Below, in pieces: positions 3,449 to 53,335 of a DNA stretch of 64,000 nucleotides. How positions within the stretch are numbered: position 1 is the first letter of the stretch; each line of letters opens with the position of its first letter. The DNA comes from Octopus sinensis (Eukaryota), in NCBI RefSeq assembly GCF_006345805.1, contig NC_043013.1, positions 53,878,001 to 53,942,000 of the forward strand, read 5' to 3'. The notes below the pieces were generated by a model. It did no database searches. It was not told where the DNA came from and saw nothing but the letters and a program-made list of their open reading frames with translations. A program made the translations under genes and the position numbers.

Positions 3449-3497
<49 letters not shown>

Positions 3498-3499
<2 letters not shown>

Positions 3500-5440
3500 T
3501 AAACAGTAAAATTAAATACAGACATGGACAAGAACATGAAACACCACAGAGACGACACAAGAACCACAGGACGGGACATTCGAAGCCCTCAGTCATCAGT
3601 CAAGAACCAGATCATCTTAGCAATTTCGGCTGATTAATCTTGAGATTGCTCCGATATGGCCAGCCCGCCAAGGAAATCTAAGCCAAGCGCATTAGATCCC
3701 CTGGAAGAAAGCTTCGAATGTATACAACGAAAGGACGGAAAACGATCGAAGTACAAACAACAAAAATACAGAATACGTGACACCAATAAGAATACAAAAA
3801 CGTAAAAACAATAACGGTAAAAATAAAAAATAAACACAACAAACAAACCAGGACGTAGGACAAGGGTCTTTCGACAGGACGATTGAGTAGGGGCTGGCTT
3901 GTGAAGTTGTGCCTAAGGCCACGGGGAGAGACGAACAAATCCGTGTTGCTTCTGAGGCTGCTGAAAACGAAAAGAGCGCTCAACAGCGGCTAGCTGTCAC
4001 GTGAGAACAAAAGACAGGAGAAAGGGACAGATGAAAAGGGAGAGAAGGTGACGAGGGAGGAGAAGAAAGAGACAGATCGAGGGGGCTGGAGGTGAGAGAG
4101 ATAGAGAAACGTAGAAAGGGGGGGGGGGACGGATGGAGAGGGAAAGAACGGAAGTGGAATAAGGGAGGAGGAGAGAGAGAGAAAAAGAGACAGATTAAGA
4201 GTCGTATCAAAGCTTGAGAAAAAAATATACTTATCGTATAAGGACAATTGTGGATACGTAGCCGCCGATTATATAGGTAAACAGTAAAATTAAATACAGA
4301 CATGGACAAGAACATGAAACACCACAGAGACGACACAAGAACCACAGGACGGGACATTCGAAGCCTCAGTATCAGTCAAGAACCAGATCATCTTAGCAAT
4401 TTCGGCTGATTAATCTTGAGATTGCTCCGATATGGCCAGCCCGCCAAGGGAAATCTAAGCCAAGCGCATTAGATCCCCTGGAAGAAAGCTTCGAATGTAT
4501 ACAACGAAAGGACGGAAAACGATCGAAGTACACAAACAAAAATACAGAATACGTGACACACCAATAAGAATACAAAAACGTAAAAACAATAACGGTAAAA
4601 ATAAAAAATAAACAACAAAACAAAACCAGGACGTAGGACAAGGGTCTTTCGACAGGACGATTTGAGTAGGGGCTGGCTTGTGAAGTTGTGCCTAAAGGCA
4701 CGGGGAGACGAACAAATCCGTGTTGCTTCTGAGGCTGCTGAAAACGAAAAGAGCGCTCCACAGCGGCTAGCTGTCACGTGAGAACAAAAGACAGGAGAAA
4801 GGGACAGATGAAAAGGGAGAGAAGGTGGACGAGGGAGGAGAGAAAGAGACAGATCGAGGGGCTGGAGGTGAGAGAGATAGAGAAACGTAGAAAGGGGGGG
4901 GGGGACGGATGGAGAGGGAAAGAACGGAAGTGGAATAAGGGAGGAGGGAGAGAGAGAGAAAAAGAGACAGATTAAAGTCGTATCAAAGCTTGAGAAAAAA
5001 ATATACTTATCGTATAAGGACAATTGTGGATACGTAGCCGCCGATTATATAGGTAAACAGTAAAATTAAATACAGACATGGACAAGAACATGAAACACCA
5101 CAGAGACGACACAAGAACCACAGGACGGGACATTCGAAGCCCTCAGTCATCAGTCAAGAACCAGATCATCTAGCAATTTCGGCTGATTAATCTGAGATTG
5201 CTCCGATATGGCCAGCCCGCCAAGGGAAATCTAAGCCAAGCGCATTAGATCCCCTGGAGAAAGCTTCGAATGTATACAACGAAAGGACGGAAAACGATCG
5301 AAGTACACAAACAAAAATACAGAATACGTGACACCAATAAGAATACAAAAACGTAAAAACAATAACGGAAATAAAAAAAAAATAATCAAACAACAAAAAA
5401 CCAGGACGTAGGACAAGGGTCTTTCGACAGGACGATTTGA
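3498..5440 (-). mobile_element. Non-coding ~777-bp element in 2.5 head-to-tail copies inside (TA)n; hammerhead-bearing (retrozyme or Penelope pLTR-like)
   Basis: The unit start ggtaaacagtaaaattaaatacag occurs at 3498, 4276 and 5052 (periods 778 and 776). The third copy stops at ~5440, and (TA)n flanks both ends. Copies differ mostly by 1-bp indels. No credible ORF. Confidence 0.85.
3584..3661 (-). ncRNA. Candidate hammerhead ribozyme with non-circularly permuted strand order (copy 1; further copies ~4362-4437 and ~5138-5213)
   Basis: Minus strand AGCAA-UC-UCAAGA-uuaauc-AGCC-GAAA-UUGCU...UCUUGA-CUGAUGA-cugag-GGCU. Stem III is AGCAA/UUGCU, stem I is UCAAGA/UCUUGA and stem II is GGCU/AGCC. Predicted cleavage is between 3644 and 3643. 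Confidence 0.7.
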
Positions 5441-5566
5441 TATATATATATATATATATATAGTACATATATTATATATAAACAAGAAATTAAATGGAGA
5501 GATACAAATGACAATCCATATTTATGTGGCATTCAACCAATGTACAATGTACAACCAATGTTTTAC

Positions 5567-6158
5567 ACACCACTTTGAAGGAATTTTTTTCCTTTATTAC
5601 CTTATGTTGTATATATATATTATATCATCATCATCATCATCATCGTTTAATGTCTGTTCTCCATGCTAGCATGGGTTGGACGGTTCGACCGGGGATCTGG
5701 GAAGCCAGAAGGCTGCACCAGGCTCCGGTCTTATCTGGCAATGTTTCTACAGCTGGATGCCCTTCCTAACGCCAACCACTCCGTGAGTGTAGTGGGTGCT
5801 TTTTACGTGCCACCTGCACTGGTGCCAGGCGAGGCTGGCATCAGCCATGGTCGGATTGGTGCAATTTACGTGCCACCTGCACGGAAGCCAGTCGAGGCGA
5901 CACTGGCTTCGGCCACGATTCGGATGGTGCTTTTTACGTGCCATCGACACGGAAGCCAGTCGAGGCGGCGCTGGCATCGGCCACGATTCGGATAGTGCTT
6001 TTTACGTATCTCCAGTCCAGGGGTCCTGGCATCTGCCGGGTGCCAGTCATAGGATTGGTTCAATTTCGATTCCGATTCCAATTTCGATTTCGATTTCACT
6101 TGCCCCAACAATATATATACAACATAAGGTAGTAAAGGAAAAAAATTCCTTCAAAGTG

Positions 6159-6162
<4 letters not shown>
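5567..6162. mobile_element. Small foldback/MITE (~50-bp arms) split by an RTE 3'-end insertion
   Basis: acaccactttgaaggaatttttttcctttattaccttatgttgtata (5567-) is the reverse complement of tatacaacataaggtagtaaaggaaaaaaattccttcaaagtggtgt (-6162), with one mismatch. Confidence 0.75.
5625..6108 (-). mobile_element. 5'-truncated RTE LINE 3' UTR (or a SINE sharing it) with (GAT)n tail and internal ~60-bp repeats
   Basis: (CAT)n-cgtttaa...ccatgctagcatgggttggacgg...ctggatgcccttcctaacgccaacc is the reverse complement of the RTE tail at 34700-34891. Confidence 0.85.
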
Positions 6163-6210
<48 letters not shown>

Positions 6211-6329
6211 GTATATATATATATATATATATAAAAGCAATATGTTTCAAATAGAAAATAGAAACTACAAGTGGAGGATAAGATATAGGGAAAGTAAGAA
6301 GAAAACAAGCAAAAATGCATATTGAATAT

Positions 6330-6608
6330 CATTTTTGCGGATAGTAGACTGTATTGAACATGAAACAGTTGTTTAGTAGGATGAATTTCAGTGCTGCAAT
6401 TATGAATCTGTGGTTGATGCATCCTGGGGTCTCTTCTGGGTATTGTTTCTATGCCATCATCGCGTGGGATATTGGTGTACAGGTTCCCCACAATAAATGA
6501 TACTAACAGGGTTCCTTCATTTATTCTCTTTGGAAGGTGGTTAAGCATGTCTAAGTCATCCCAACACCATTTGATGATCGGTAAGCATTCAAAGCCAGTG
6601 AACAGCAA
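6330..6608 (-). pseudogene. Penelope-like reverse transcriptase fragment (inverted relative to the adjacent element)
   Basis: DDLDMLNHLP...TLLVSFIVGNLYTNIPRDDGIETI resembles the PLE RT motif LVSFDVxxLYTNIP, with the catalytic D lost. Confidence 0.75.
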
Positions 6609-6639: not shown

Positions 6640-9350
6640 AACAATTCAAAATATTAAATTTAATTCCTCTTAATTCTACCTCAGTTCATCTAATTGTATT
6701 TATTTACCGCTACTTTTCATTAAAAAAGCCTTTATTTTTTTTTTTTATATTCAATGTGCATTTTTGCGTTTTTTTCTTCTGATTTTCTTCTTATTTTCCC
6801 CATATCTTTTCCACGTGTAGTTTCTATTTTCTCTTTGAAACATATTCCTTTTGTATTTTACTACACCTGAGACCAAAAATGCCACAGATATCAAACTCTT
6901 CAGTTAAAACTCTCAACGAAGATACTCTAAAAGAGCTAAAAGAGATTAACTCGAAGTTGAGACTCTTAATTAACAAGATTGATGAACCAACTCGATTTAT
7001 ACAAGAGGAAAAGGAAAAAGAAGAGAAAAGGCAATCTCTGGAACAACTTAATCAACATTTGACCAAATTATGCACCACCCTTCAATCTTTACCTCACAAT
7101 AATTGTATAAATGAAAATCCCCCTATAGATGATCATCATCATCATTGTTCGACCAGGGTCGAGACAATGGAATTTACCGTGCTACGCCAGACTTCATGGT
7201 CCATCATAGCATTACGGAGGTCCTGTTGCTGGATGCCTGTATCCCTGGAGATTACATCAGGGTAGGAGAGTGTAGGTTCCATCCAACCGCCTCTCAAGCT
7301 TCTTTGATAACGTCCAGGTTTCTGAGCCATATAGTAGAATTGGTTCGACTGTGGCTTTGAAGATTTCAAGTTTGAAGTCTCTACTTAGATTTGATGACCA
7401 GACCTTATGCATGTCATTACAGGCTGACCAGGCCATACCCTTTCTAGTTAGAAAATCTTTTCCAGATGATGATATGTATGACCCAAGATATTTGTAATCA
7501 GAAACCATATTTAAAGGTGCACTGTTGAGAGTATGGATGATGCAATCACTGTTGGACAGGCACTTGTTTATGTATTCAGTCTTGGCCTCGTTGAGGTAAA
7601 GACCTACACAATTTGAGGCTTGTTCGAGAGATTGTAAAAGAGACTGGGCATTGGAGAGAGAATCACTGATAAGAGCGATGTCGTCAGCAAAGTCAGTGTC
7701 TGTCAAGTATTCAGCTGGGTGTCTGGAACTTCTTCTTGGTTTTATTTCAAAGCCCTTGCTAGAAATGGTATCAACTGACATACGTAGCACATAGTCAACG
7801 ACAATGATGAAAAGAAATGGGGCGAGTGTGTCTCCCTGCAGTATTCCGGCTTTGATTGAGAAAGATGATGTTCCTCCGTCAGGGGTTAAGATGGTTGAAG
7901 ACGTATCTGTGTAGAGGACCTTGATGGCAGAAATGATTTTGTCTGGTATCCCATAGAGCTTAAGGATTTCAAACATCTTGTACCTATCTACAGAGTCGAA
8001 CGCTTTAGAAAAGTCTACAAACACCATTGCAAGATCGCGATTAAATGCTTTTGATCCTTCAATAAGTCTATAGATGATACACAGGATAGAACCCCGCTCC
8101 ACGTATTCACAATCAATTAAAAACCGGATTATCCATATCTGGAATGAGAAACTTCAAGCCAGAAAATTTTCTTTCTGGAATATCATTAAAAGCAACTATA
8201 AGGCAGTAATTTATGAATGTTGGTTAAATTCAACACCAATAATTTTACCTCGTGAATTTCAAATTAATCCCATACCAAACGAGCAGGACCAACGAAGACA
8301 ATTAAGGGAGAAACTAGCATAGGAAAAATTGAAGACAGAAATCAAACTCAAGCTTAGAGCATTAAGCAATGAACAACAATTAAAAAACACAGACAAGGAA
8401 ATATATACAGAATTAAGGAAACGTTCCCAGATGGTCAATGCTTGGAAAGTGTTTAGAAACTGTGGAAAAAACTTGTGAAGCTGAAGAGACCAACTCCCTG
8501 CAATGCTGGGAAAGACAAGCCAATTTCTTTATTAACTACGAAACACAGTTCACCATAGAAAACACATCGGCTAACCTCTTCCTGAAGAAAAATAAACCAA
8601 AAACATAACACAGAAATGACCCCACACTTATCAAACACAAACCACAGACAGTCTAGGGAACACAACTCCACCGACCTGACCTCTCTTACATCCCAAAATA
8701 ACTTTCAAACAACAAATAGAAAATCCAGACGTAATCCTCAAGGCATCCAACATACAAATAAAAGGTTCCATCGAAACCTCCAGACTAACCTAAACTTTTG
8801 GAACTGCTACCTACCAATCTACTCCCATCATCTCACAATCAATGGAAGAATTTACCTCCAAGACTTAACCCTCAACATGGTTACTTCAATCATTCAACTA
8901 AACACAACCTAATTAGACAACGTAACTTCTCCCTCCACCCACATTACAATATTGAAAATAGATTTAACCGAAACCACATCAACCATAGACAACCCTCGGC
9001 ACAACCATAATCTAGTCCACTACACGGTCACCCCACCACAATCACACTACCACAGACACACTTTACACCTGTTTTCTCCTCACCAAACCAAACCAAACAC
9101 AATACAGACTTCCCACAACAATCCACCTGCAACAACCATTTTTTGGACTTAAATCAGAAAAAACAGAGATGTGAAATGGAACAAAATACACAAGAACAAC
9201 CGAAAATAATCAACTTATCAAAGAAAATCCTAAGTATTACACAAACTCACATTCTAGCAAGAGGTTTAAAGTTTACACCAACTCCTTGGAGATCGAACCC
9301 GAATGAAATTAAGGATAACATTATGGTACATATGTGTTTTATGCAAAATC
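6640..9350 (+). mobile_element. 5' portion of a degenerate Penelope-like element, interrupted by an RTE insertion
   Basis: Broken ORF pieces at 6879- (coiled-coil-like), 8074-8322 (WNEKLQARKFSFWN...YECWL...P.EF) and 9143-9355. The last reads IINLSKKILS...ILARGLKFTPTP, the typical N-terminal motif ahead of PLE RT. Confidence 0.65.
7134..8067 (-). mobile_element. 5'-truncated RTE-clade LINE (RT domain) with 11-bp target-site duplication
   Basis: ORF 7257-8102 has FVDFSKAFDSV, GILQGDTLAPFLF, DFADDIAL, YKYLGS and LLYGSETW. (GAT)n tail at ~7134-7145. TSD ctatagatgat at 7123-7133 and 8068-8078. Confidence 0.92.
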
Positions 9351-9439
9351 TGTGATGAACCTGAGTGATTGCTGATGACCTGGAGTCACCTCTGATATAT
9401 ATATATATATATATGAATATGATGATATATATATATATA

Positions 9440-12865: not shown

Positions 12866-13330
12866 AGACCTTTATATAAATAAATAACGTGAAATACACG
12901 AAGGGACGAACAAAAAAACAAACGGGTCATTCAAAGCCTTCATTCTTCAGTCAGAAACTGATCCCTGATCGCAGATTTCGGCTGTTTAATTCTGAGATCC
13001 GCTCTGAATCAGCCAGCCACAGAAGGAAAGAATGAAACGCAACAGAGACGAACATGAAACGAAAAATCTTTTTTTGGGGACAGTAACAGTTAAAAACATG
13101 GATGACATAGGCGCCCTACGGCTTTGAGACAAACAGAGAGACACAAAAACAATATCAACAGCGTGGAAAAATAAGTACCTTTTCGGTGATGAGACACATG
13201 TAGTTGAACAAGCGGCCGATGGAAACGAGGCAGCAAGTTGCAAGAGGATAAGAGAGAGAAAAGGGGGTAAGAGAGAGAGGGGACAGTGACCGAGAGAGAG
13301 AGGGGGGGAGAAGGAATCGAAGGAAAGAAA
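12866..13330 (-). mobile_element. Diverged relative of the 777-bp hammerhead element, single truncated copy in (TA)n
   Basis: It shares acggg.cattc.aagcc, tttcggctg.ttaat and gccagcc, plus the same order of A-rich segment, ribozyme motif and GA-rich tract. TA runs flank it. Confidence 0.75.
12935..13014 (-). ncRNA. Candidate non-circularly permuted hammerhead ribozyme (second family member)
   Basis: Minus strand GCGGA-UC-UCAGAA-uuaaac-AGCC-GAAA-UCUGC...UUCUGA-CUGAAGA-augaa-GGCU. Stems I and III differ in sequence from 3584-3661 but still pair. Predicted cleavage is between 12996 and 12995. Confidence 0.7.
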
Positions 13331-22404: not shown

Positions 22405-24379
22405 TATATATACATATATCTCATTTTACAAATGGTAGATAGCCATTTCATATATAATAAATATTTTTTGAATTATGCTTAAGTCACTGTTCGCAACCTC
22501 CAACAAGGATTTTTGGATGAAATATTGTTACTTCTTGAAATTTACTTCGGGTAGCAGTGCTGTAATTCTACTTCCAATAAAACCTGTTCTCCCCGACACA
22601 CTTCAAATACTGGTTCACAAATATATTGTTTCTTCTCTCTTGAACAAGTGAGCTCTATTCTGTCTCATCTGAGCCACAAATTGTCGCTCAAGCTGTCTTT
22701 CACCTTCCATTCCCAACACTGAACATTTTCCCAATACTTCATCTCAGAACTCTGAACCTATTGAGCAACAATTCTCTTCCTCTCTATATTTTGCCTACAG
22801 ATATTGACATACATATATATTCAAACCTGTACACTCCTGCTATTGATATCGCTATTATGGTGGAGTTTACTAAGGCCAAAGGTTAAGGCCAATGCTCTTC
22901 TCACCAACTCATAAAAATAATATCTTCATCAGAAATATTGAAAATGGAGAGAAAACAAAGTGTTGTTAACTTTCCTTCATCTCGGAGTAAATTTTAACCA
23001 ATTTTCCAGCTTTAGTTTAGTTAAAATAATAGCATATGAGAAATAAAAGCAATAAGTGCCAAAATCGGGATGAACTGAGGCTGAACTTTACCAAATATGT
23101 TAAAAATTACGAGATTACCTGAATTAAAAACAAAAAAAAAAGGAAAAAGAATGTTAAGTGCTGACCTTTTCTCAACCTATTGCAACTAATTGCTTGGTAT
23201 TAGTTTCTGGAAGAATTTAATCTGTATGACAACTATATTATCCATGCAATAGCTGGCAATAGATTCAATATAATTCTCTCATTATTAAGTATAGCAACCA
23301 AAATATTATTAGATCTTTACAGTATTTTCCTCAGCTCTTGGAAATTCTTGGTGATTGCAATCTGATGAATGTTTTCCTTGAAGGTTCAATTAAACGAACG
23401 ATCAGTACAGGTATAGGCGGTGAGGATGATGGAAAGAGATAGTAATCTCCGTCGTAGCTCTCTTATCCAAAGTCTGTAAATATTAAATATTTGCTGCCAG
23501 ACATTGCCAATATATTTTCTACTACAAATACAATAACCAGTTCTTTTTCTTATTTTTGGTAAATATTTCTCTGTTTATCTTTTTCCGTAGTATAGCAAAC
23601 ATGTAAACAGTATGTAGTTTCTTCAAAATTTCCTTACAATTCACAAAGCACTAAGCAAATGTTGCCATAGTCCTCCATATCTAACTAAATAATGTACTGC
23701 AAATGGTTTTATGTTTAGGCAAGTGTTGTTTCACAGATTCTCCCTCTCTCTCTCACTCTCTCTCTCTCTCTCTCTCTACTTTATCAAAGTGCAGTTTGGT
23801 TAGATGTTCATTATTCACCTTTGAAAATATATTTCAAGTACTTTCTATAAAGAATTCTCAGTCTAAATTCTTCAAATGATGTTTGCCGAGAATGTGCCCC
23901 ATTTCACTTTCATAAGACAGATCCATGATTTTGATGAATGACTTTTAGGTGCAGGCAAGGCTATGGTGGTTTATAACTCCTTACTTTGTAACCACATGGT
24001 TTCAGAATTAGTCCCACTGCATGGGCAAGTATCCTGTGGTTATGCATAGGATGACAATTACCTCATGAGTGAAGTTGTTTGTTACTTATATGCATAATGT
24101 GTGCATGAATGCTGATACCCGATGCCTTTCCTTGAGTGGAACAATGATATGCTTACATTTCTATGATCCTTTGTTCTCGGATTTTAAAGAGCTGTGGAAT
24201 AATAAATCTTTTACTTAAGAAACAGGTAGCGATTGATGCCAAGAAGAGGATCCAGCTGTAAAATCCCAACCCTTATCCCTATCCAACTCCTTCTTGCATT
24301 GATAAGCAGATGTTGATGTAACAAAATTAAGGGTTTTGTAATGGTTTACAAAAAGGGTTTTGTAGCACATTAGGAGGTC

Positions 24380-31500: not shown

Positions 31501-31911
31501 CTGTTAATTGTTTGCTAATGCATCAAGATATTCCTGAAGAAGGAGATGCATCATATTGTCAGATTTAATCCAAACACTCTGTACAGTAAAAGACACTTGC
31601 TTGAGGTACAGTTGCACTGAATGTGAAAGCATAGGATAAGTGAATTTCTTAAAAATACAACCAGAAGTGCAATAAATAAAAACCAAAGCAGGCAAGCAAG
31701 AGATATTCTTTTACAGTCATTTGACTGCAGCCATGCTGGAGCACTGCCTTTTATTCGAACAAATCGATCCCAGGACTTATTGTTTGTAAGCCTAGTACTT
31801 ATTTTATCAGTTCTTTTTGCTGAACTGTTAAGTTACGGGGGACATAAACACACCAGCACCGGTTGTCAAGCGATGTTGGACGGACTGACACACAAACATA
31901 TATATATATAT

Positions 31912-34889
31912 ACTAACTTCAGGAAACCTACCAGCCACCTAGTCACTTACCGATCGGGCCAACATACCAGCCAAATTGACTACATCCCTGCAAGGCAAAG
32001 GGAGAGATGGCTGCTTATAAATGCCAAAACCTTCCCAGGCGAAGAATGTACCCCACAACATAGACTGGTAGTTAGTGACTTTAGGATCAAGACTAGGAGG
32101 ACAACCAGAAGACGACCAATATGGAGAAGAAGGATCTGGAAGCTTAAAGATCCTGCAAATGGACAGAGATTTAGGGACATATTACTTGAAGCCTTTGACG
32201 AAGTAGAAGGGGATAGAGCATCACAGGGGGTAGAAGACAACTGGACGTTTCTAAGGGACAACCTGCTGAGAGCCACTGACCAGATCTGTGGTTGGTGCAA
32301 AGTCCCCTCTCGACCTAGAATAACGTGGTGGTGGAACAATATTGTAGACAGGGCTATTAGAGAAAAGAGACAGGCTTGGAAGGTCTGGAAAAATGGGGGT
32401 AGCAGGGAATTGCATCAGACTGCCAAAAGAGAAGCTAGGAGACAGGTTTATTTAGCCAGAGGGGAAGCAGATAAGAAAAAAATTGCCAATGTTCTGCCCG
32501 TGAGGACCAAAGACTGGAGGTGTTTCGCGTTGCAAGACAGTGTGTGAGAGAGAATCGTGATGTGGTAGGAGAGAAGTGTGTTCGCATGGAAGATGGTTCA
32601 CTTGCGCTAAATGAGGATGCAAATAGAGAGGTTTGGAGACGCCACTATGAAAGGTTGCTGAATAAAGAAAATGAATGGGATAAAGAGAGTCTGCCGAATG
32701 TCAACCCAACAGAGGGACCAGCTATCCGAGTTGATAGTTCCTTGGTAGTTAAGGCAATTAGAAGCATGAAGACAGGGAAAGCCCCAAGCCCATCAGGAAT
32801 CACTGCAGAGATGCTCAAAATGTCTGGTAGTGTCAGCTATAGCCTAGTCACCCGTATAGTTAATCAGGTGATACACAAAGGAGTCATACCCAATGACTGG
32901 TTTAGCAGCATAATAGTCAACTGCTACAAAGGTAAAGGTGATGCCCTAGATACAAATAACTACAGAGGTATCAAGCTGTTGGATCAGGTGATGAAGGTTA
33001 CGGAGAGGGTCATAGCCCAACTAATTAGAGAGAGAGTTAGTTTAGATGAGATGCAGTTTGGGTTTGTGCCAGGGAAAAGTACCACTGATGCTATATTCCT
33101 GGTAAGGCAGCTGCAGGAGAAATATCTAGCCAAAGATAAGCCCCTGTACCTGGCTTTTGTTGACATGGAGAAAGCCTTCGACAGGGTCCCCCGATCCCTT
33201 ATCTGGTGGTCAATGAGGAAACTAGGGATAGATGAATGGTTAGTGAGAGCTGTGCGGGCCATGTATAGGGATGCTGCTAGTAAGGTGAGGGTTGGCAACG
33301 AGTACAGTGAAGAATTCCAGGTGGAGGTAGGGGTCCACCAAGGCTCAGTCCTCAGCCCCCTCCTATTTATCATAGTCCTCCATGCAATAACGGAGGAATT
33401 CAAGACAGGATGCCCTTGGGAGCTCCTTTATGCTGATGACCTTGCTCTAATTGCTGAGTTGCTATCAGAACTGCAGGAGAAGTTTCAGGTGTGGAAACAA
33501 GGATTAGAATCGAAGGGCCTCAGCATCAATCTAGCTAAAACCAAAGTACTAATCAGTAGGAAGGTAGACAAATCACAAACGCCTTCAGGTAGATGGCCCT
33601 GCTCGATCTGAGAAAAGGTGTAGGTAGAAACTCTATAAGATGCACCAAGTGTAAGCTATGGACACATAAGAGGTGCAGCAATGTCAAAGGAAGGCTAACT
33701 AGGAAGATAGTTTTTGTATGTGGCAGATGTTCAGGAACAATAAACACTGAAAATGCTCTGAGACCAACTTCCGTCACTTTCCAGGGAGAAAAACTAGAAA
33801 TAGTTGATAGTTTCCGTTACCTAGGTGACCAAGTCAGCAGCGGGGGCGGGTGTGCTGAAAGTGTAACTGCTAGAGTAAGAATAGCTTGGGCAAAGTTCAG
33901 AGAGCTCTTACCTCTGCTGGTGACAAAAGGCCTCTCGCACAGAGTAAAAGGCAGACTGTATGATGCATGTGTACGACAGCCATGCTACATGGCAGTGAAA
34001 CATGGGCCGTGTAAGCTCGCAAGAAATGAAGCCAGTATGCTCCGATGGATGTGTAATGTCAGTACTCATACTCGGCAGAGTGTAAGTACCTTGAGAGAAA
34101 AGCTGGACCTAAGAAGCATCAGTTGTGGTGTGCAAGAGAGACGTTTGCGCTGGTATGGTCATGTGGCGAGAATGGATGAAGATAGTTGTGTGAAAAAGTG
34201 CCACACCCTAGCGGTTGAGGGAACCTGCGGAAGAGGCAGACCCAGGAAAACCTGGGACGAGGTGGTGAAGCACGACCTTCGAACTTTAGGTCTCACTGAG
34301 GAAATGACTAGAGACCGAGTCCTCTGGAAGTGTGCTGTGCGCGAGAAGACCCGGCAGGACAAGTGAGTCCATAACCCGTGGCCTTCTACATGGGATGGAG
34401 CCAGCCTACGTATGCATACCTTCCCTTCTTGGGACACAAAACTCTACTTGTGAAGACCTGTGAGGATCAGAATCGAAATCGATCAATGGAAATTGCAGAT
34501 GTGTTACCAGTGCCGGTGGCATGTAAGAGAACCATCCGTTTCGCGACCGTTGCCAGCACCGCCCCGACTGGCCTCGTGCCGGTGGCATGTAAAAAGCACC
34601 ATCCGTTCGTGTCCATTGCCAGCCTCGCCTGGCCCCCGTGCCAGTGGCACATAAAAAGCACTATCTGTTCGTGGCTATTTGCCAGCTCTGTCTGACACCT
34701 GTGCGGGTGGCACGTAAAAAGCACCCACTACACTCACGGGGTGGTTGGCGTTAGGAAGGGCATCCAGCCGTAGAAACACTACCAGATCTGACTGGGCCTG
34801 ATGAAGCCTTCTGGCTTCACAGACCCCAGTTGAACCGTCCAACCCATGCTAGCATGGAAAACGGACGCTAAATGATGATGATGATGATG

Positions 34890-52469: not shown

Positions 52470-53335
52470 CTTTTAGATAGGGACCGTTGGACTCTTACAT
52501 GAATTGTTAGAAAGGATCACAAAAGTACAGTTCCCAAAATTACTGCAGAGCTTAATGACCACTTCGAGAACTCAGTTTCAAGAAAAACAGTTTGCCAAGA
52601 GCTGCACAAAGCAAGATTTCACTGGAGCGCTGCAATCAGAAAACCACAGCTTTCAAAAGCAAATGTTGCAAAGCATTTCGAGTGGAGTAAAAACTTACAG
52701 AATTGGTCCTCTTGAATGAGTCATCCTTTACCTTACTTTTGGCCGCCAGCTGATTATATATGTGGAGACAGCCAAAAGAAGCATTTGACCCAGACTGCCT
52801 TCTTCCAGCTGTTAAACATGGAGAAGTATCTATGATGATCTGGGGGGGACTGTATCTCAGAAATCCACATGCCCAATGGTTTCCCTTCATGCCAGAATTA
52901 ATAGTCAAGACTATTTAAGCATTTTATCTCATCAAATTCATCCTATCATTGTGAAACTGTTTCTAGGGGGAAACACAATCTTTCAGGATGATAATGCACC
53001 AACTCACACATCTAAAGTTGTTTCTGAATGGCATGAGGAGAATTCTAGTTGAACATCTTATCTGGCCACCACAGTCCCCAGATCTCAATATTATTGAACA
53101 TTTAAGGTGCACTTTAGAAAAACCAGTAAGGAGTCAATATCCTCCATCATCACTACAAGAACTGGAGACTGTTTTATCTGATGAATGGACAAAAATTCCT
53201 TTGGAAACAATTCAAACTTTGTATGGGTCCATACCTTGTAGAATTCAAACTGTAATTACTGCCAAAGGTGGTCCTACTCCATATTAAAATTAATTTTTTT
53301 GAAATTTTAAGGTGTTTCCATTATTGTGTCGAACT
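52470..53335 (+). pseudogene. Tc1 (DD34E) transposase remnant
   Basis: IFQDDNAPTH, WPPQSPDLNIIEHL and IPCRIQTVITAKGGPTPY* (ORF 52988-53287). Confidence 0.85.

Follow-up and report, generated by a model that had tools for sequence, protein, structure and literature searches.

The array and its genomic setting

The window, that is, the whole 64,000-nt stretch of DNA that was analysed, is animal DNA in which microsatellites and LINE fragments are frequent. It contains a partial tandem array and a diverged solo relative, each carrying a candidate ribozyme:

3499..5437, minus strand: partial tandem array, Penelope/Naiad-like, in the order repeat-internal-repeat-internal-repeat, with a period of 776-778 bp
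3499..3884, minus strand: last 386-bp pseudo-LTR-like repeat, carrying the only intact ribozyme copy
4351..4504, minus strand: second ribozyme copy, as assembled without G8 of the core box and without one G of helix X
5125..5277, minus strand: third ribozyme copy, the first to be transcribed, in whose assembled sequence stem I and the k-turn bulge are interrupted by single-base gaps
12927..13035, minus strand: diverged solo ribozyme (the second element), 73% identity, with stems I-III, the upstream stem II strand, the clamp and the 3x6 loop; it has no hairpin Y, and its closing helix, traced by eye and absent from the MFE, is imperfect

The array consists of three 386-bp repeats with two 390-bp internal parts between them. 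Its units are 97.1% and 96.7% identical to each other by BLAST, and (TA)n lies on both sides of 3499-5437. Both the (TA)n target and the partial tandem arrangement with a pseudo-LTR are features of Naiad and Penelope-like elements. No protein-like ORF was seen in 3499-5437 when ORFs of at least 100 aa were inspected by eye, and a frame combining an N-terminal GIY-YIG domain with a reverse transcriptase, sought in the array in the same manner, was absent as well; the element is therefore filed as non-autonomous and Naiad-like, not as a Naiad. The BLAST match between the array and its solo relative spans 12883-13029 at 73% identity. As assembled, one of the three tandem ribozyme copies is intact, namely the one at 3572-3725; in the other two, the missing single bases could reflect mistakes of the assembly or mutations private to these copies.

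Each repeat opens with a 3-bp hairpin capped by a GAAA tetraloop (5420-5430, minus strand, and the matching starts of the other repeats), and the two upstream repeats (4277-5437) are set apart from the last chiefly by single-base gaps located in short runs. Two frames, 6096-6608 (minus strand) and 9011-9355 (plus strand), contain what we take to be motifs of Penelope-like reverse transcriptase proteins. The former lies on the same strand as the array, about 0.7 kb upstream of it, and a Pfam search returned no match for either frame. LINE-type reverse transcriptase remnants occur at 7257-8153 (minus strand) and 31627-34366 (plus strand), with RVT_1 matches at E-values of 4e-18 and 9e-32, and a weak DDE_3 transposase remnant occurs at 52967-53287 (plus strand).

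A hammerhead core with reversed blocks

The core elements, with positions assigned by analogy to the hammerhead core, are:

3644..3649, minus strand: stem III strand and C17
3638..3643, minus strand: stem I 3' strand in the apical loop (6 bp), then the 5-nt linker 3637-3633
3620..3632, minus strand: stem II 3' strand, GAAA box (3627-3624) and stem III 5' strand
3593..3605, minus strand: stem I 5' strand and CUGANGA box (3599-3593), in which only N7 (3595) is listed as variable

From 5' to 3', a unit thus presents a stem III strand and the AUC site; next come a stem I strand, the 5-nt linker and a stem II strand, then GAAA with the second strand of stem III, and only after these the partner of stem I and CUGANGA. 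The boxes CUGANGA and GAAA, an NUH site and the pairs A15.1-U16.1 and G10.1-C11.1 are all present in the 3572-3725 copy, the third copy and the second element; the second tandem copy lacks the full core, G8 being missing. By comparison with known hammerheads, the RNA is predicted to be cut at the AUC site between 3644 and 3643.

Comparison of the unit with the second element revealed two compensatory changes in stem I. For stem III, three compensatory changes and a G.U were counted in ungapped register, a number that falls if the second element carries an inserted pair. Stems I and III therefore covary within the window. Stem II is identical in both window families, so that its covariation comes only from the Naiads, which were read by eye. 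A descriptor of the complete motif fitted three of the four homologous copies, and in 200 dinucleotide shuffles of the window it fitted no site, although it was composed post hoc, once the motif had been seen. Rfam gave no match at the gathering threshold anywhere in the window and no hammerhead match; of the two matches found in 3450-5480 up to E = 10, both are attributed to chance. One 94-nt contig with a depth of 179 begins at 3643, the predicted cut, but it stems from a single run (X10), which is presumed to be of RNA, and as a contig end it does not count as evidence. Collectively, these features make it very probable that the element carries a hammerhead ribozyme, one that belongs to a non-autonomous retroelement of Penelope/Naiad type and whose permutation is absent from the literature searched.

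A partial match to the descriptor elsewhere in the window, at 22932 (22900-23000, minus strand), combines a 6-bp stem III and a 4-bp stem I with no stem II. Three such sites appeared in 200 shuffles, and it was set aside as a chance occurrence.

The partner of stem II

The strands bearing on stem II are:

3661..3665, minus strand: stem II 5' strand (G10.1 = 3665), upstream of the remaining core, forming 5 bp with 3632-3628 in both window families
3707..3721, minus strand: helix X, 5' strand (15 pairs, probability 0.86-1.0; includes 3711-3720)
3576..3590, minus strand: helix X, 3' strand (includes 3577-3586)
3668..3704, minus strand: hairpin Y, with helix X on one side and the stem II strand on the other, present in the MFE and centroid structures

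Two partners compete for the stem II 3' strand, one upstream (3665-3661, 5 bp) and one downstream, past a 5-nt gap (3587-3584, 4 bp). At offsets of 0-3 nt after CUGANGA at most one pair can form. The downstream strand is buried in helix X (3721-3707/3590-3576; 15 bp, -20.9 kcal/mol, pair probabilities 0.86-1.0), and the corresponding stem has a probability of 0.00; helix X excludes this candidate only, not the upstream strand. In one subfamily, observed among loose contig ends, the downstream candidate is lost, while contigs pass through 3661-3666. The upstream strand carries no variant among those listed, and its position is the same in Naiads, with other sequences. These observations suggest that stem II uses the upstream strand rather than one following CUGANGA, and that the ring of the core is opened between A9 and G10.1. 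A 5-bp closing helix beside the stem II strand had also been considered for the unit and was dropped after helix X and hairpin Y were seen.

The original prediction was wired differently, as a plain type SGC hammerhead with a 5-nt insertion after A9, a downstream stem II (3587-3584) and an outer repeat that would compete with stem II and act as a switch. The 10-nt inverted repeat (3577-3586/3711-3720) on which this idea was built does exist, and the 4 downstream pairs can be drawn in both window families. However, the repeat is part of the closing helix X, which is found across Naiads and leaves the upstream stem II strand unaffected, and the second element does not have it at the corresponding place. 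Given the burial and loss of the downstream strand, the upstream partner in those Naiad relatives that were read, and the statement of Eckert et al. (PMC10085705) that no hammerhead is known with more than 1-2 nt inserted beside the box, such wiring is highly improbable. A single nucleotide inserted at the step from position 9 to position 10.1 is conserved in the minimal hammerheads of Penelope elements (PMC4209133).

The clamp helix and the hinge

Two further elements connect the core:

3653..3660, minus strand: clamp (outer) helix, 5' strand, in which a variant at 3656 repairs a mismatch
3606..3613, minus strand: clamp (outer) helix, 3' strand
3650..3652, minus strand: non-bulged strand of the k-turn (3n, 2n, 1n = G, G, A), from its sequence and the definition in PMC5061560
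3614..3619, minus strand: bulged strand of the k-turn, a 3-nt bulge followed by G1b, A2b and U3b

The outer helix was initially described as an outward continuation of stem III in both elements. That a helix is there is borne out: in the unit (3660-3653/3613-3606) it has eight positions with seven pairs and one U.C mismatch, and in the second element (13013-13006/12964-12957), where it was said to pair despite a different sequence, all eight positions pair. In register, the two elements differ by three compensatory changes, one one-sided change and one repaired mismatch. It is not, however, a continuation of stem III, as a 3x6 asymmetric loop intervenes. Instead, the helix appears to correspond to the clamp called 'I' by Eckert et al. 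(PMC10085705). The earlier observation that the catalytic (stem I) strand starts right after this helix, although its partner lies in the apical loop, holds, with 0 nt between them in both elements.

The family is large and abundant in public runs, and its variants were collected from the contigs of four such runs (5330, 4054, 1633 and 43 contigs); percentages are of summed contig depth, not copy number, and the variants, among those listed, are known singly. Within the core box, N7 is the sole variable position among the variants listed (27% of summed contig depth, run X1). A variant at 3656 (53%) restores the mismatched clamp pair, and those at 3587, 3713, 3701 and 3671 preserve pairs of helix X or hairpin Y. 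By contrast, variants at 3609 (31% of summed contig depth, X1) and 3660 (22%) disrupt pairs of the clamp, and the list shows no compensating change in their partners. In nested folding of the 3572-3725 copy the clamp has a probability of only 0.01-0.12.

In the tandem units, the sequence of the 3x6 loop between clamp and stem III fits a standard kink turn. A 3-nt bulge followed by G1b.A1n and A2b.G2n is found in the units 3499-4275 and 4277-5051; the third tandem copy has a 2-nt bulge as assembled, and the second element has C at 1b. No variant among those listed falls on 1b, 2b, 1n or 2n; L1 and L3 are variable, G standing at L1 in 59% of family depth. Like Kt-7 and the kink turns of SAM-I and box C/D RNAs, the candidate places its 3-nt bulge and its G.A and A.G pairs between two helices. 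It differs from them in lying inside a hammerhead scaffold, in the non-standard 1b of the second element and in that other Naiads have a bulge or a three-way junction instead. A standard k-turn occupies the corresponding position in Naiad_Obim and Naiad_Ovul, where the helices on either side differ and 3b-3n is U.U. K-turns bend RNA by ~50 degrees and, in SAM-I, allow loop docking in cis (PMC5061560). A G at 3n goes with folding in metal ions alone (PMC4382518; PMC5061560), and since 3n is G in the unit, its k-turn is predicted to fold in this way.

Comparison with known ribozymes and elements

The reversed block order excludes hammerhead types I, II and III. With the order S, G, C, a 5-nt linker between stems I and II and an 8-bp clamp, the unit resembles type SGC, but it lacks that type's uninterrupted block C, in which the stem II strand follows CUGANGA after 0-2 nt. 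Eckert et al. (PMC10085705) arrived at six hammerhead permutations by assuming three uninterrupted blocks. Their types SGC and CSG share with the element the reversed blocks, a pseudoknotted core, a short stem I-II linker, a clamp of stems I and II and a connection to the far end of stem III that is short or of zero length. Here, in contrast, block C is split between A9 and G10.1, an arrangement that these authors took to be impossible; helices X and Y are additional, and both clamp strands are tied to stem III via the hinge. The hosts also differ, being an animal retroelement here and metatranscriptomic circular-RNA-like agents there. According to the same authors, single-unit type SGC constructs cleave during transcription, and natural type CSG examples reported in 2023 numbered only two. 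A keyword search of its supplement found no Octopus, Acropora, Metazoa, Eukaryota or Nematoda. No description of the fold emerged from the literature search; most subscription papers lay outside that search, and a prior report is possible.

The minimal type I hammerheads of Penelope elements (Cervera and de la Pena 2014; Lunse 2017) likewise lie in a tandem element of Penelope type, within its pseudo-LTR, accept an insertion between 9 and 10.1 and possibly need two copies. They are built on a palindromic stem III of 1-2 bp, whereas the element is not of type I, its stem III (5-6 bp) is stable and non-palindromic, and any dimer would swap stems I and II, not III. Like the element, non-LTR retrozymes have non-coding tandem units with one hammerhead per unit and are likely moved by a Penelope-like enzyme; they are defined by type I hammerheads, which the element does not have. 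With the Naiads (PMC8557442), the element shares the (TA)n target, the partial tandem with a pseudo-LTR and the ribozyme layout seen at several consensus 3' ends. It differs from them in having no RT/endonuclease ORF, and its ribozyme sequence is unlike those of Naiad_Obim and Naiad_Ovul.

Relatives in Naiads and metagenomes

Naiads were described as having a (TA)n target, no canonical hammerheads and, sometimes, unexplained half cores (Craig et al. 2021, PMC8557442). The 3' ends of 30 of their 54 consensus sequences (PMC8557442 File S5) were read by eye, over the last 450-600 nt or in the context of the motif, with record names taken from the next header and the metadata order. Nine of the 30 have the layout of the unit in unrelated sequence (Bfor, 3_Chem, Amil, Aacu, Anas, 2_Movir, Obim, Ovul and Esco) and come from a ctenophore, cnidarians and cephalopods. 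They amount to about six independent lineages with differing helix sequences. The shared order is X, Y, stem II strand, clamp, hinge, S, linker, G, hinge, clamp, stem I, CUGANGA and X, and most of the links from stem II to clamp and from clamp to stem I measure 0-1 nt. Esco has an imperfect stem II and Y, and in Obim and Ovul X is weak. By eye, a plain CSG arrangement was recognised in five further 3' ends (three Nbra, Smim and one nematode record) and a plain SGC arrangement in one (Lpol), bringing reverse-order hammerheads to 15 of the 30; the other 15 showed no such motif in the part covered or gave no parse.

A metagenome scan returned 87 loci, of which ten passed a loose stem filter and nine, belonging to a coral family, have the layout of the unit in unrelated sequence (L151, L154, L157, L160, L166, L176, L186, L197 and L203); the window's own family was not among the loci found. 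The tenth, L181, was discarded, having 4+4 bp and no stem II partner. In an alignment of the nine coral loci, 91% of cells pair, compared with 31-43% in slid controls. Pairing reaches 98% for clamp, stem III and stem I, 87% for stem II, 84% for Y and 76% for X. Covariation among these nine loci does not exceed that of shuffles (53 of 500 shuffles were as high), as expected from their close relationship. Their similarity is confined to ~70-260 bp around the ribozyme, and three have inverted repeats in their flanks. Among viral contigs, the family pattern had no match; a loose pattern hit at least 120 loci, none fitting the descriptor among the matches listed.

Folding in cis or as a dimer

How the pieces would fold together is best explained by a cis-acting hammerhead on a k-turn-bent rod, with its reversed ring opened between A9 and G10.1, to which we assign a probability of roughly 50%. 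In such a reverse-order (SGC/CSG) ring, X and Y would bridge the gap as a helical junction, and the clamp would tie together the far ends of stems I and II and hang from stem III via the k-turn. The transcript would first form a rod of X, Y, clamp and stem III; the k-turn would then bend the rod, and the apical loop would dock on the two open strands of the same unit, giving stems I (6 bp) and II (5 bp), probably with fraying of one or two clamp pairs. The core would cut after C3644, and tandem transcripts would be converted into unit-length RNAs for a Penelope-type enzyme and retrotransposition, as has been proposed for retrozymes (bioRxiv 10.64898/2026.07.22.740005).

The original prediction held that folding in cis is sterically hard. 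This was explored with a crude rigid-body model of ideal A-form helices and covalent-link limits, using A-form helix parameters and the distance from A9 to the scissile phosphate, with 20-75 starts and hops per run, so that its values are indications only. In the model the core alone closes. The difficulty is genuine for a straight rod, which misses closure in cis by 56 Å, but a single unit closes once the 3x6 loop bends: a free hinge leaves 0.8 Å with an unforced bend of 53 degrees, and the second element leaves 3.2 Å at 50 degrees. With a formed k-turn the modelled gap in cis is 16 Å; opening the top G.U reduces it to 7 Å, a looser tolerance to 4 Å and the opening of two pairs to 2 Å. The difficulty also applies to relatives modelled with all pairs formed. 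At box-jellyfish dimensions, cis fails by 31.5 Å and a dimer nearly closes (2.2 Å), and at coral dimensions cis fails by 19 Å unless five distal pairs are opened, which lets it close; with ctenophore dimensions, closure in cis is reached.

The same ribozyme could instead act chiefly as a dimer with reciprocally swapped domains, or in trans among the tandem copies, which is the idea of the original prediction with its wiring corrected. The apical loop of each unit would dock on the open strands of the other, only transcripts with two repeats would be cut, and the monomer or circle would be stable. We regard this as a serious but somewhat less probable reading. A two-fold (C2) dimer with a formed k-turn closes in the model at 0 Å, which the cis form does not, and the arm lengths of several Naiads are mismatched for cis (31.5 Å and 19 Å, as above). 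Further, pairing in the coral family's 12-bp stem III stands at 98%, three of its pairs showing one-sided changes, the array supplies three copies, and the parallel drawn earlier with minimal Penelope hammerheads, which act as dimers, provides a genuine precedent (PMC4209133). The puzzle of the 0-nt link was flagged for type SGC by Eckert et al. as well (PMC10085705). However, the dimer model has extra freedom and closes at nearly any hinge angle (even a nearly straight rod comes within 4.6 Å), so that its closure discriminates little. Solo copies exist, namely the second element and the nine coral loci, none of which has a second copy within its 400-bp flanks; in the model the ctenophore form reaches closure in cis, by eye the arms of the horseshoe-crab form match, and opening a few pairs permits cis closure. 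The short palindromic stem III that forces known dimers is absent. As the bend is needed for cis and dispensable for a dimer, docking in cis is considered the single most likely mode.

It is unlikely that the rod is an off state, with little cutting by the RNA itself and a dependence on unfolding or on a k-turn binder of the 15.5K/L7Ae protein family, or that this genomic copy has decayed while the family is functional. Damage in two of the three tandem copies as assembled would agree with it, as would the long inactivity of cephalopod Naiads (PMC8557442), the eight of nine Xenopus retrozyme dimers left uncleaved in vitro (bioRxiv 2026.07.22.740005) and the U.U at 3b-3n in the related k-turn of Naiad_Obim and Naiad_Ovul. 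Against this, the G at 3n of the unit predicts folding in metal ions only (PMC4382518; PMC5061560), the identity between units is 97%, and public runs contain the family in abundance. Even together with other wiring, an inactive or off-state form is given only a small share.

Implications

The layout is probably a new hammerhead permutation shared with Naiad retrotransposons. If the cis fold or another with the same opened ring is true, the rule of uninterrupted blocks behind the six permutations (PMC10085705) would be broken. It would also bring non-circular permutations into animal genomes, add many more natural type CSG examples and perhaps explain why a large group of retrotransposons seemed free of hammerheads. 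The 'half-core' motifs left unexplained in Naiads (PMC8557442) become directly testable on a reverse-order parse, and the zero-linker puzzle of type SGC gains a concrete hypothesis, hinge versus dimer, along with a 154-nt test RNA. A broader view, which we put forward only tentatively and think rather doubtful, is that Naiad-type retrotransposons of five or more animal phyla use a family of reverse-order hammerheads, among them a seventh permutation whose core contains a junction. Its cephalopod members would act as k-turn-braced reciprocal dimers that need two repeats per transcript, possibly gated by 15.5K, and would thereby count repeats and protect the monomer or circle.

Other 3' RNA motifs were seen among the Naiads. 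The hammerhead-less Naiads CGi, 1_Skow, 1_Pfla, 1_Chem and 2_Chem, of bivalve, hemichordate and hydrozoan origin, have in common a different conserved 3' RNA motif, which could be another ribozyme. In the same File S5 set, the 3' ends of Naiad-1_Movir and Naiad-4_Chem look like twisters.
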